DNA from: an uncultured Lachnoclostridium sp.
Lineage (GTDB): Bacteria; Bacillota; Clostridia; Lachnospirales; Lachnospiraceae
DNA: 64,000 bases
Direction: 5' to 3'
NCBI GenBank assembly: GCA_964561705.1
Contig: CAZLQJ010000001.1
Location: 45,915-109,914, forward strand
Under the pieces are notes generated by a model that searched no databases, was not told the origin of the DNA, and was given only the letters and a program-made list of their open reading frames with translations. Shown in pieces: positions 39,100 through 41,259 of the stretch; within the stretch, counting starts at the first letter, position 1; each line of letters begins with the position of its first letter. Both the position numbers and the translations under genes were made by a program.

Positions 39100-41259
39100 C
39101 TATAAACTAGCTGCTAAATTTCTCAGCACAGTACCCACATAATTTCTATTTTCCACACTGGATGTTTGATCGATGCTTCTCATTCTCTCCAGTGTTTCCT
39201 CGTTCCACTCATCATTTTTTCTAAACCGGCTTTGTCCCGGCTGTACGTTACAAGCTCTTTCCGAAGCTTTGGCTTTTTTAATCGCATTCTGCATCATCTG
39301 CAATCTCTTAATGGTCATATTGATTTCTGCATCTGTCAGAAGTCCATTCAACGCAAATCCCAAAACTGCTGGCCGCAGATTTAAAATACGCTCTGCCAAA
39401 GCCGCATCCATATATGGTATGACCAAATCCCCTGTTTTAGGATCATAGACTCTTCTGTCATGTTTCAATTGATGTTTGACTGTTGAAACATCCAGATTCA
39501 TACCAAAAGCAGCATCATTGTCAAATGCACTAACCCCCGTAATCTCATCCGTATTCTGCCCTGTCCCTTGCTTGATTGTTATCATAATATTCCCCACATG
39601 ACGATCTACCTGACCACAAAGGACATCCAGTACCTGCAGACTCATTAACTCTCTCTGTACCGTCCCGCCTAGCTTAGGCATGGATCTTTTTCCTTTCTTC
39701 ATATCATCACCAAATTTTTTCAAATCAAGATTTCCCCTTGCAGATTCCATCATGTTTCCTCTGATTGTCTGTTCACTTTTTTTATCAAAAATTTCAACAG
39801 TTTCTGACCTGGCTACAAGATCCTGCAATCCAAGAAGTGCCGCCACTCGACTGGTCGCTACATTTCTTCTTGTGGTGTTTATCGTACTTGCTCCCGGTTT
39901 TTTCTTGATTCCCGCCGGGTTCAATGTTTCCTTCATAGACGTCAATTGATTTTCTGAAAGATGATATATCGTGGAACAAACAAATCTCACATTTCCTTGG
40001 TTTCCAAACCATCCCATCTCAGAATCACTAATTTTATCAGGATCAGCACTTGAATTTACAGTTTCTGCCCACTTTAAAATGCTCTCCTTTTCCTCTTGTG
40101 ATAATTGTGGAAAACGTTTCATCACCTTCTCGACATTTTTCATCACAAGCTCACGAAAATGATTTTCAGCTGAAGCATTCACCGTTTTTTTTAACTGCTT
40201 AAACAGTGCCCATCCCTCCCGTGTAAGATCCGGAAGCATACCATCTTCCACCCAGCTTTGCAAATTTTTATAATCTTTATCATTGATTTGTTTTCCTTCC
40301 GCAAGCGCTTGTTCCAAAGCGCTTCTTCGATTTTCCTCTTCTGATCTGACTTTAAATGCATCCTCTTCTTTAAAGAAATATGTATGATCTAATTTCTGCT
40401 CTGTTTGATCCGCATGAAGGATCTTTGCATTATCATTCGAAATGCGAAAAACTTCTGAACAAACACCTTCTTTTTCTTTGTCCGTATGAAATAAATCCTC
40501 CGTAACAATACGAACCGTACGAACCCTTCTTAAAACATCCTTCCAGCTTTGTCTTCCCTGTTCCTCCGGTGTCATCGCACAAAAATCCGTACATGCTGAA
40601 TCCAACCGCAGCAGATCATTCTGTGCCATATTCTGAATCTGCAAAATAATGGCTTGCTTCTCCTGTCGGGTACTACGAAATGAGCTACCGTTCTCCTTAG
40701 CGGTTTCGCATGCTGCCAAAAGATCCATATAATGAAGCTTCATTTCTTCAAATCTCCGCAGATTCGTTTCCGGTTCTCTTGTAAATTTTTCATTCATGGC
40801 ACGTACAAGAAATTCCAGGCTCTTTATGACATCGCCATACGCCTCCCCTTTTTTTCGATACATCCCTTTGAGTCGATCCAGCAATTGCGGATAGACCCCC
40901 TCCTGATCCTTCCGGATCATCACCTCCCCACTAGGCATTTCCATGCGTCTAAACAGCCCTGACTCATGATTTTGCCTTGCAGCACTTTTTTGCATTTGTA
41001 CTCTCTTCAGTTCTTCGATCACCTGTGTATTTCCTACACCGCCTACCGGTTTGGGTTTCACTGATCCTTGTCTTTTAGGAAGTTCCTCCTGGTTATTGGG
41101 CATCTGCATTCTGTTAAAAACTCCCATTTCACGACCGGATCCCTTTTTTGAAGATCTATGTCTCTTAAAAAAACTTCTCAACTCTCCGCCCCCTGTCCTG
41201 CATACATTTTTCTGCAAATTTTCCAACCAATCAAATAAATCTATTTTCCAGTATACCAA
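39100..41259 (-). CDS. Large hypothetical protein with a C-terminal PI3K/PI4K-like kinase catalytic core; candidate eCIS payload
   Basis: Residues 540-586 read LQVLDVLCGQVDRHVGNIMITIKQG...ITGVSAFDNDAAFG, compared with the PI3K/PI4K catalytic loop GDRHxxNIMI and activation segment DFG. The start is uncertain: the track start is a TTG with no RBS, and the first ATG is at 41127 (MGVFNRMQMP). Confidence 0.55.
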   Translation of the reverse strand: MVYWKIDLFDWLENLQKNVCRTGGGELRSFFKRHRSSKKGSGREMGVFNRMQMPNNQEELPKRQGSVKPKPVGGVGNTQVIEELKRVQMQKSAARQNHESGLFRRMEMPSGEVMIRKDQEGVYPQLLDRLKGMYRKKGEAYGDVIKSLEFLVRAMNEKFTREPETNLRRFEEMKLHYMDLLAACETAKENGSSFRSTRQEKQAIILQIQNMAQNDLLRLDSACTDFCAMTPEEQGRQSWKDVLRRVRTVRIVTEDLFHTDKEKEGVCSEVFRISNDNAKILHADQTEQKLDHTYFFKEEDAFKVRSEEENRRSALEQALAEGKQINDKDYKNLQSWVEDGMLPDLTREGWALFKQLKKTVNASAENHFRELVMKNVEKVMKRFPQLSQEEKESILKWAETVNSSADPDKISDSEMGWFGNQGNVRFVCSTIYHLSENQLTSMKETLNPAGIKKKPGASTINTTRRNVATSRVAALLGLQDLVARSETVEIFDKKSEQTIRGNMMESARGNLDLKKFGDDMKKGKRSMPKLGGTVQRELMSLQVLDVLCGQVDRHVGNIMITIKQGTGQNTDEITGVSAFDNDAAFGMNLDVSTVKHQLKHDRRVYDPKTGDLVIPYMDAALAERILNLRPAVLGFALNGLLTDAEINMTIKRLQMMQNAIKKAKASERACNVQPGQSRFRKNDEWNEETLERMRSIDQTSSVENRNYVGTVLRNLAASL

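Follow-up and report, generated by a model that had tools for sequence, protein, structure and literature searches.

The eCIS locus and its first gene

The window, that is, the whole 64,000-nucleotide (nt) stretch of DNA analyzed here (contig CAZLQJ010000001.1 of an uncultured Lachnoclostridium sp., positions 45,915 to 109,914), contains a complete extracellular contractile injection system (eCIS) on the minus strand, the first gene of which encodes a kinase-like protein that is the subject of this report. This gene is followed, in order, by genes encoding a WHD-AAA+ protein (Pvc15-like), a LuxR regulator, a BTAD/AAA_22 regulator, a second AAA+ protein, and a double ADP-ribosyltransferase toxin. 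Next come the sheath, gp19-like tubes, a 1232-amino acid (aa) protein, CIS_tube, the gpD hub, gp5 OB, gp25, two Baseplate_J proteins, and Tail_P2_I, and the series ends with a MORN protein, the Pvc16 cap, and DUF4280. As assessed by Pfam matches, the structural genes, from the sheath through the DUF4280 tip and including gp5/VgrG OB, span positions 5652..28836. The Pvc15/Alg15-like AAA+ ATPase, which has a winged-helix N-terminal domain and is the presumed cargo loader, is encoded at 36918..39065 (AAA, E=2e-35; WHD, E=6e-11), and the 656-aa double ADP-ribosyltransferase toxin, a second putative cargo, at 29803..31773 (ADPrib_exo_Tox, E=1e-30, in two stretches). The 5' boundary of the locus is a hairpin followed by a T-run (ACGATGATGAAT..ATTCATCATCGT TTTTTTG, 41290..41321), which is the intrinsic terminator of the upstream housekeeping gene metA (41385-42320; HTS match, E=2e-142). 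The eCIS genes and the terminator hairpin are on the minus strand, as are the features of the kinase-like gene described below.

The longest open reading frame (ORF) of the kinase-like gene extends over 39100..41259 and comprises 719 aa when counted from a TTG start. This ORF is used for residue numbering throughout; subtracting 26 gives the numbering of a 693-aa protein. Translation probably begins not at the TTG at 41259 but at an in-frame TTG at 41181, which yields 693 aa. This start is favored because it is preceded by AGGGGGCGGAGAG and because its position fits the N termini of homologues. The closest of these (P0001, 86% identity) has the N terminus MRGFFRRHRSSKK and is called as a 692-aa protein with an equivalent start. 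The probable coding sequence is thus 39100..41181, corresponding to 693 aa plus the stop codon. Read from the sequence, the remaining 26 codons at the 5' end of the longest ORF (41182..41259) hold the Shine-Dalgarno and are probably untranslated, and this extension was found in none of the homologues. The TTG at 41259 is only 4 nt past a TATAAT hexamer (41263-41268), just downstream of the metA terminator hairpin. A promoter scan of the minus strand upstream of the gene identified no full sigma-70 match, so that this hexamer is at most a putative promoter element.

The gene had been singled out in an original prediction, made by reading the DNA, as encoding a protein with a phosphoinositide 3-/4-kinase (PI3K/PI4K)-like catalytic loop and a possible effector role. 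The ORF and the two motifs on which this proposal was built, DRHVGN and DNDAAFG, are indeed present on the minus strand at the residues given. Residues 537-586 read ELMSLQVLDVLCGQVDRHVGNIMITIKQGTGQNTDEITGVSAFDNDAAFG, starting with ELMSLQVLDVLCGQVDRHVGNIMITIKQG and ending with VSAFDNDAAFG, and the segment that had been highlighted upstream, NVATSRVAALLGLQDLVARSE, corresponds to residues 466-486. The predicted gap was also found: 34 nt separate the stop codon of the kinase-like gene from the downstream AAA+ gene, whose ATG is at 39065.

Domain organization and kinase-like fold

The protein begins with a 91-aa leader (residues 27-117, 40909..41181) that is predicted to be disordered and is a candidate cargo-loading sequence. 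It is net basic, with 20 Lys and Arg against 8 Asp and Glu, and rich in Gly, Pro, Ser, Gln, and Asn. In the AlphaFold2 model, the predicted local distance difference test score (pLDDT), taken as a proxy for disorder, is below 50 at residues 20-81 and 96-117. The leader has a conserved F..RHRSSKK start, common to P0001 and a second relative (P0002), and contains two F(N/R)RM(Q/E)MP repeats. It is followed by a helical domain (residues 118-247, 40519..40908), which is conserved across the family and whose helices (119-247) have pLDDT values mostly of 74-95. This domain matches no known family in Pfam or NCBIfam.

A kinase N-lobe follows (residues 248-306, 40342..40518), with β-strands at 250-298 predicted in both of the models described below. 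The equivalent of the Gly-rich loop is EGVCS (residues 264-268), for which the family consensus is GGxAS, and the sequence FFK297EED, inside a predicted strand, carries the putative ATP-binding Lys297 (40369-40371). Between this strand and helix αC there is a helical insertion of ∼150 aa (residues 307-455, 39895..40341; helices 307-446 in both models), of variable length in the family: in six relatives, the spacing from FFK to RNVATSR ranges from 94 to 170 aa. The remainder of the kinase domain (residues 456-719, 39103..39894) comprises αC, the hinge, the C-lobe, and the C-terminal helices, and drives the structural matches reported below. Its landmarks are an invariant RNVATSR in αC (39847-39867), recognized by conservation, and a hinge GNMM (39748-39759), assigned from the models and the sequence. 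The catalytic loop D552-R-H-V-G-N557 (39589..39606) was identified by conservation, hhalign, and a PF00454 match. The equivalent of the DFG motif, D580-N-D-A-A-F-G586 (39502..39522), opens the activation segment and is defined by conservation and by its alignment with I-D346-N-G-L-A-F of type II phosphatidylinositol 4-kinase α (PI4KIIα). The kinase domain is thus longer than originally proposed, starting at about residue 248, with N-lobe strands seen in both models, instead of about residue 420, and ending at residue 719. Some of the long N-terminal part, in which the original prediction had recognized no domain, accordingly contains the N-lobe strands and the putative ATP-binding Lys297.

Searches with the single sequence retrieved five relatives, and a profile of the conserved part retrieved 73, sharing 18-86% identity. 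The conservation counts refer to these 73 sequences, some columns having fewer residues (e.g. n=70). When 1.84 billion cluster representatives were scanned exhaustively with a hidden Markov model, 4,351 matched at E<=1e-3, of which 1,559 were at E<=1e-30. Among named genomes, relatives cluster in Lachnospiraceae, Oscillospiraceae, Butyrivibrio, and Ruminococcus of the gut and rumen, and occur also in Chloroflexota, Cyanobacteria, Actinomycetota, Verrucomicrobia, Chlamydiales, Myxococcota, and Proteobacteria. Related genome loci were located using a six-sequence alignment of the family. The residues of the predicted active site are nearly invariant: D552 (72/72), H554 (73/73), and N557 (73/73) in the catalytic loop, D580 (70/70), N581 (70/70), D582 (69/70), and F585 (69/71) in the DFG-like segment, and, in the N-lobe, K297 (64/73) and S268 (67/73). 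Glu299 (51/73) and an acidic residue at position 300 (Asp or Glu, 67/73) follow the Lys. Further invariant or near-invariant columns are R465-N-V-A-T-S-R471, G501, M504, L541-Q542, D545, and Q550. The near-invariance of the active-site columns argues for an active enzyme rather than a pseudokinase. Some relatives contain more than one kinase unit. Two large proteins (P0076, 1387 aa; P0193, 1320 aa) have two tandem PI4KII-like domains, each matching PF00454, whereas an unclassified metagenome-assembled genome (MAG) (L059:7724-10966) and a Chlamydiales MAG (L065:7175-10549) encode a Hanks-type Pkinase and a PI4KII-like domain in one protein of ∼1100 aa.

The kinase assignment was assessed both by sequence and by structure. 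The only Pfam signal in the protein is PF00454 (PI3_PI4_kinase), at residues 535-592 (E=0.018, 15.4 bits). When the 73 relatives were scanned singly, 41 matched this family (best E-value, 5e-8), 10 matched Fam20C, seven eCIS_core, and one CotH. P0001 scores 15.9 bits, and the scores of P0014 (29.2), P0052 (33.5), P0058 (27.9), P0076 (60.5), and P0193 (52.3) are above the cutoff, with alignments that cover merely ∼50-80 of the 241 model positions. No match to the protein was found in NCBIfam, nor in the PDB by phmmer. Family profiles produced weak matches in PDB sequences to PI4KIIβ and FAM20A/C, over the same segment from catalytic loop to DFG. An hhalign comparison of the family with PI4KIIα (4hnd_A) gave E=4e-5 and a probability of 69-70% over 57-62 columns, pairing D552, N557, and D580 with D308, N313, and D346. 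In permissive mode, hhalign gives a colinear alignment of 248 columns, in which confidence is low beyond the core and which pairs GGxAS with the G-loop GSSGS, FFK297 with VFK152, RNVATSR..LLGL with SEAGASLVDQKLEL, and GNLM with GSFQLF, ahead of the catalytic loop and DFG segment. The local core alone is trustworthy, and a global-mode alignment is meaningless.

Structure prediction gave more extended similarity. AlphaFold2 modeled the full-length protein, with the 73-sequence alignment, with a pLDDT of 81.3 and a predicted template modeling (pTM) score of 0.79, and residues 240-719 in an independent run with a pLDDT of 91.2 and a pTM of 0.91. When each model was compared with the PDB using Foldseek, all 12 matches at E<=1e-3 were PI4KIIα or PI4KIIβ, with a probability of 1.00. 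The best E-values were 9e-6 for the full-length model and 2.9e-6 for residues 240-719, and the 12 top matches ranged from 2.9e-6 to 8e-4. The next matches were Helicobacter pylori CtkA (2e-3) and HipA (0.018), followed by CotH, HipT, and classical protein kinases. These structural matches, together with PF00454 in 41 of the 73 relatives and the hhalign pairing of the three catalytic residues, bear out the PI3K/PI4K-like catalytic core of the original prediction.

The notion that the DRHxxN...DxD match is fortuitous in a protein without a kinase-like fold might be drawn from the subthreshold Pfam match and the empty phmmer search of the PDB. It is effectively refuted. The strict motif D[RK]HxxN..D[NFL][DG]xxF occurs only once over the six reading frames of the window and in none of 20,000 shuffles of the protein, it is invariant across the 73 relatives, and the top matches of both models are kinases only. 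Profile and structure searches, the kind of evidence by which the original prediction was to stand or fall, thus find a kinase-like fold. The protein is nevertheless not a bona fide member of the PI3K/PI4K group but a new family within the kinase-like superfamily. It does not belong to the Pfam PI3_PI4_kinase family, because the curated threshold is missed, nor to the type II PI4K, because it lacks both CCPCC and full-length sequence homology. Membership in an anti-phage defense system was also considered and rejected, the PADLOC match to PDC-M03A being weak (E=3e-4) and not extending beyond the catalytic loop (residues 507-579 in the 693-aa numbering). PDC-M03A, an uncharacterized defense candidate, may share a related kinase-like core.

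Probable cargo status and possible activities

We consider it probable (∼0.6) that the gene encodes a cargo, or effector, of the adjacent eCIS, with an atypical kinase-like domain whose nearest solved fold is that of type II PI 4-kinases. Cargo status is inferred from the complete eCIS locus, the AAA+ gene 34 nt downstream, the disordered basic leader, and the DUF4157 fusions found in relatives. Experiments have defined the plan of eCIS cargo: at the N terminus a disordered loading sequence that is specific to the system, at the C terminus the effector domain, and, optionally, a DUF4157. Cargo of one system tend towards similar leaders. Loading needs the Alg15/Pvc15 AAA+ ATPase, which is required in AlgoCIS (10.64898/2026.05.27.728243). 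DUF4157, a marker of eCIS-associated toxins (EATs), is located N-terminal to the toxin domain (PMC8213781). In 7/73 close relatives, eCIS_core/DUF4157 is fused N-terminally to the kinase-like domain, and the same fusion is found in ∼11 distant loci of Cyanobacteria (L051, L053, L070), Chloroflexota (L031, L058, L060-L062), Actinomycetota (L049, L067), and Paenibacillus (L054), i.e. in at least four phyla. A scan of the N-terminal regions of long relatives for further delivery domains, such as LXG, Rhs, or PAAR, found only eCIS_core and Hanks-type Pkinase.

Gene neighborhoods point the same way. The pairing of kinase-like and AAA+ genes recurs in six related loci (L001-L003, L084, L085, L086). 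The gene for P0001 is followed 34 nt later by a WHD-AAA+ gene, those for P0042 and P0017 lie directly after an AAA+ gene, and that for P0012 is part of an array with AAA+, Peptidase_C97-like, and three eCIS_core genes. P0026 and P0021 are encoded at the 3' end of an operon with MORN, Pvc16, DUF4280 ... MFS, P0021 having in addition a tandem paralogue and an eCIS_core neighbor. The recurrence of relatives beside the Pvc15-like ATPase in eCIS loci, together with the fusions to eCIS_core/DUF4157, supports the effector role originally proposed. Finally, the N termini of the two putative cargo proteins have a feature in common. Clusters of a hydrophobic-x-R-(x)-M repeat are found at the N terminus of two of the 46 window ORFs scanned, namely the ADP-ribosyltransferase toxin, with four copies of VEREM/VERM at residues 6-30 (31684-31758), and the kinase-like protein, with two copies (FNRMQM/FRRMEM) in its leader. 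This shared repeat may be a system-specific loading signal, which is suggestive only.

Several findings weigh against this reading, either on the side of the fold or on the side of delivery. The protein scores below the gathering threshold of PF00454 (15.4 versus 27.1 bits), and its confident sequence alignment with PI4KII is limited to the 57-62 columns at 69-70% probability. The designation of K297 as the ATP-binding Lys is putative, being based on a low-confidence alignment and on conservation, and the G-loop EGVCS departs from the family consensus. TM-scores are modest (0.29-0.40), indicating that the relationship to PI4KII is distant. In the Pfam scan the protein itself has no DUF4157, and there was no eCIS_core match among the window ORFs scanned. 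The gene lies next to regulators at the 5' end of its locus, while the usual place of eCIS toxin genes is the 3' end (PMC8213781). In addition, a Pfam survey of 126 ORFs neighboring non-Firmicutes relatives that match only in the catalytic core revealed no eCIS enrichment, which indicates that the superfamily is broader than eCIS and that the eCIS link is clade-specific.

Some of the distant relatives have a neighbor of their own. In 13 distant loci, the kinase-like gene is directly followed by a conserved ORF of ∼160-260 aa, the products of which are mutually homologous across phyla (blastp, 1e-5 to 1e-71). These ORFs, in Chlamydiales, Chloroflexota, Verrucomicrobia, Paracidovorax, and other hosts, are L056:10561-11100, L058:10452-11009, L060:10434-11003, L062:10439-11008, L065:10561-11109, L069:10556-11062, L059:10979-11461, L043:10766-11470, and L082:10641-11432, and are also present in L057, L061, L063, and L077. 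The two-kinase proteins of L059 and L065 have the partner too. It has no Pfam match and is absent from the window and all eCIS-clade loci. In L058, L060, L061, and L062 it occurs together with the DUF4157 fusion, an arrangement that looks like a toxin-immunity layout. The ORF product is a candidate immunity, antitoxin, or partner protein. If it is an immunity protein, that clade at least would target something present in bacteria.

We infer the loading, delivery, and catalysis of the kinase-like protein to proceed as follows. The Pvc15-like AAA+ ATPase, whose gene begins 34 nt downstream, would recognize the leader and load the protein into the tube lumen, and sheath contraction would bring it into a target cell. 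There, its C-terminal domain would catalyze ATP-dependent phosphotransfer through K297, D552/N557, and D580, which appear to be the equivalents of K152, D308/N313, and D346, the ATP- and metal-binding residues of PI4KIIα. The fold and the cargo-like build suggest that bacteria of the gut and rumen are able to deliver a kinase into other cells by injection. As for what is phosphorylated, Ser/Thr residues of a protein and a phosphoinositide or other membrane lipid head group are about equally likely, each as a tentative substrate; another substrate or another chemistry accounts for the remainder.

A narrower form of the cargo reading, which we regard as rather unlikely, makes the protein a lipid kinase directed against membranes of eukaryotes, be it host epithelium, protists, or fungi. 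It would rewrite the identity of these membranes after injection, in the manner of Francisella OpiA, Legionella LegA5, LepB, and MavQ, and Rickettsia Risk1. Clostridia are not known to make phosphatidylinositol (PI), so that a PI kinase would be harmless to the producer. The fold that comes closest, with an E-value lead of about three orders of magnitude, is that of a lipid kinase, PI4KII, and the DND..F segment fits the type II signature IDNGLAF. The acidic pair in FFK-E-E-D resembles K152..E156-E157 of PI4KIIα, in which an E157A/Y159A double mutant is inactive (PMC3974213), and the large helical insertion is situated where insertion I1 of PI4KII builds the PI pocket and membrane anchor. There is also a precedent for such delivery by a contractile system in OpiA, a PI kinase delivered via type VI secretion (T6SS) (PMC7298712). 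However, plant proteins that are bona fide members of the type II PI4K family are Ser/Thr protein kinases and make no phosphatidylinositol 4-phosphate (PMC4986951), so the fold does not fix the substrate, and the next structural neighbors, CtkA and HipA, are protein kinases. Moreover, the sequence has no CCPCC or comparable lipid-anchor motif. No immunity-like gene adjoins the kinase-like gene in the window, which counts in favor of the lipid reading, but eCIS toxins often lack immunity genes in any case (PMC8213781). The DUF4157-fused Chloroflexota relatives have a conserved downstream partner that could be an immunity protein and would then imply a target found in bacteria. These same plant enzymes and the resemblance of the partner, in the 13 distant loci, to one half of a toxin-antitoxin or immunity pair speak for a protein-kinase toxin like HipA/HipT, CtkA, CotH, or FAM20C, which would phosphorylate an essential or signaling protein of a bacterial or eukaryotic target. 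We view this possibility as tentative. It is consistent with the ranking of CtkA (E=2e-3, probability 1.00), HipA (E=0.018, probability 0.99), CotH, and HipT after PI4KII in Foldseek, with the Pfam matches of relatives to Fam20C (10/73) and CotH (1/73), and with the alignment of FAM20A/C over the catalytic loop, DFG segment, and C-terminal helices. On the other hand, the similarity to HipA, CtkA, CotH, and FAM20C is far weaker than that to PI4KII, the protein has no Pfam HipA_C match, the window encodes no HipB-like partner, and the partner ORF is missing from every eCIS-clade locus.

Alternatively, the kinase-like protein could stay in the producer cell as an accessory or regulatory kinase of the eCIS, comparable to the PpkA threonine-phosphorylation switch of T6SS, and act on regulators, the AAA+ ATPase, or structural proteins. 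Its place as first gene of the locus, near the AAA+ ATPase and the LuxR-type and BTAD/AAA_22 regulators, would suit such a role. We nevertheless deem it improbable, because fusions in several phyla place the domain behind eCIS_core/DUF4157, because its genes are found in arrays alongside other eCIS_core toxins and, at the 3' ends of operons, as tandem paralogues, and because it is preceded here by a long disordered leader typical of cargo; such variability in copy number and position fits effectors, not core regulators. Equally low odds attach to a kinase fold with another chemistry, such as AMPylation (SelO/YdiU) or glutamylation (SidJ), or with a non-catalytic scaffold function. There are well-documented cases of kinase-like folds that carry out other reactions (KINtaro, PMC10870513), the invariant RNVATSR and the extra invariant Asp582 of DND are family-specific, and the G-loop is atypical. 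YdiU does appear far down the Foldseek list, but the similarity to SelO/YdiU is insignificant (E about 1), and the canonical phosphotransfer set (Lys, catalytic-loop Asp and Asn, DFG-like Asp) is present and nearly invariant, which speaks against a pseudokinase.

The other genes of the locus deserve mention. The original prediction was correct in noting a MORN-repeat protein at 8419-9933 (PF02493, E=3e-13; minus strand), but the link it drew between MORN repeats and PIP kinases is not meaningful. The MORN gene is directly upstream of the Pvc16 cap gene here, and a ∼1000-aa version is found in related eCIS loci (L004:1-901, L083:1-2878, L005). Since MORN proteins recur directly upstream of Pvc16 in related loci, they look like a conserved structural or fiber component rather than a coincidence. 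The protein looks like a conserved eCIS component such as a fiber or receptor-binding protein; MORN is not mentioned in the eCIS receptor-binding-domain catalogue. The two AAA+ genes flank the LuxR/GerE-type and BTAD/Trans_reg_C/AAA_22 regulator genes (31794-33575, 33656-35605, 35773-36828, and 36918-39086, minus strand). Two AAA+ genes are also found in related loci, one being divergent with a two-component system (L001-L003, L085). In the 656-aa toxin, the two ADPrib_exo_Tox stretches are apparently tandem ADP-ribosyltransferase domains, and the 255-aa ORF after the toxin gene (29009-29776) matches no family. The 1232-aa ORF between the tube and CIS_tube genes (21800-25498, minus strand) has no Pfam match and, by its position, may encode a tape-measure or length-determining protein. 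At the distal end of the eCIS operon there is a gene for a 1017-aa MFS_1 transporter-domain protein with an NHL-like N-terminal fusion (1258-4311, minus strand). MFS genes with ABC_sub_bind neighbors are found at the same place in two related loci (L004:5717-8005, L083:7695-9971), just before the kinase-like genes.

Comparison with known systems

The eCIS toxin catalogues and supplements searched list ADP-ribosyltransferases, peptidases, nucleases, deaminases, and other toxins but no kinase-type cargo and no PF00454, in line with the original remark that such kinases are not a described eCIS cargo class. In the literature searched, no paper connects PI4K with contractile injection systems. The eCIS catalogues probably include some relatives as DUF4157 proteins of unknown function. 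Two Lachnoanaerobaculum families from a 2026 preprint on new kinase-like families (KINtaro/oral microbiome), LACHF (a kinase plus phosphatase) and LACHP (a pseudokinase), were considered as a prior description of the family. Their stated features, compared by description only, differ from those of the family, which may nevertheless overlap with KINtaro.

In structure, the protein is by far most similar to human PI4KIIα and PI4KIIβ (PDB 4hnd, 4pla, 5i0n, and 4wtv). Both the catalytic loop DR(G/H)xxN and the (I/F)DN(G/D)xAF segment align, the order of G-loop, Lys strand, insertion, αC, hinge, catalytic loop, and DFG is colinear (with low confidence outside the core), and in both there is a large insertion directly after the Lys strand. 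In PI4KIIα, the K152A mutant is inactive, the catalytic loop spans residues 308-315, D346 contacts the α-phosphate of ADP, and insertion I1 (157-190), after K152, is a membrane anchor and part of the PI pocket (PMC3974213). However, sequence identity is only 11-16%, the kinase-like protein has no CCPCC or CC-rich motif in its sequence, and no equivalent of the RK-rich I2 was identified; in PI4KII, the palmitoylated CCPCC of I1 and this second insertion confer integral membrane binding. Its insertion is a 150-aa helical bundle, whereas that of PI4KII is a 34-aa amphipathic palmitoylated loop. The family, which is bacterial and eCIS-linked, adds the invariant RNVATSR and DND, the N-terminal helical domain, and the disordered leader.

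Among protein kinases, HipA/HipT and H. pylori CtkA, which are toxins or secreted, come from the same structural branch and rank next after PI4KII in Foldseek. The similarity is weaker (E 2e-3 to 0.2), there is no Pfam HipA match, and no antitoxin or small partner gene is adjacent in the window. FAM20C/FAM20A and CotH show weak profile matches on the catalytic loop, a DN.xGFG-like segment, and the C-terminal helices, but these are below Pfam thresholds, with Foldseek E-values of about 0.1-0.5.

PI3K/PI4K-like cores delivered into another cell are known from Francisella OpiA (T6SS) (PMC7298712), and from Legionella LegA5, LepB, and MavQ and Rickettsia Risk1 (type IV secretion system, T4SS). Compared by description, not sequence, those effectors belong to intracellular Gram-negative pathogens and use T4SS or T6SS, whereas the present family is mainly from gut and rumen Clostridia and is eCIS-linked. 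Delivery of a PI4KII-like lipid kinase into eukaryotes, by the eCIS of gut and rumen Clostridia and as DUF4157 cargo of Cyanobacteria, Chloroflexota, and Actinomycetota, with phosphoinositides made on the wrong membrane, is doubtful. If true, it would give eCISs their first lipid-kinase cargo and would reveal a large unrecognized family of injected membrane-identity editors from commensals, not intracellular pathogens.

The closest parallels in overall design are validated eCIS cargo, of which very few have a known activity. Were a kinase activity confirmed, phosphorylation would be added to the known chemistries of injected eCIS toxins, commensal Firmicutes would have a route to manipulate host, protist, or competitor cells, and engineered eCIS delivery platforms would gain a compact payload, namely a kinase that comes with its natural loading leader. 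AlgoCIS Cgo1 and Cgo2, PVC Pnf and Pdp1, and the DUF4157-bearing EATs share with the kinase-like family the plan of a disordered, system-specific leader at the N terminus and a variable effector domain at the C terminus, DUF4157 being optional, with an AAA+ protein (Pvc15/Alg15) in the locus; what sets the present protein apart is that its effector domain is kinase-like and its gene is at the 5' end of the locus.

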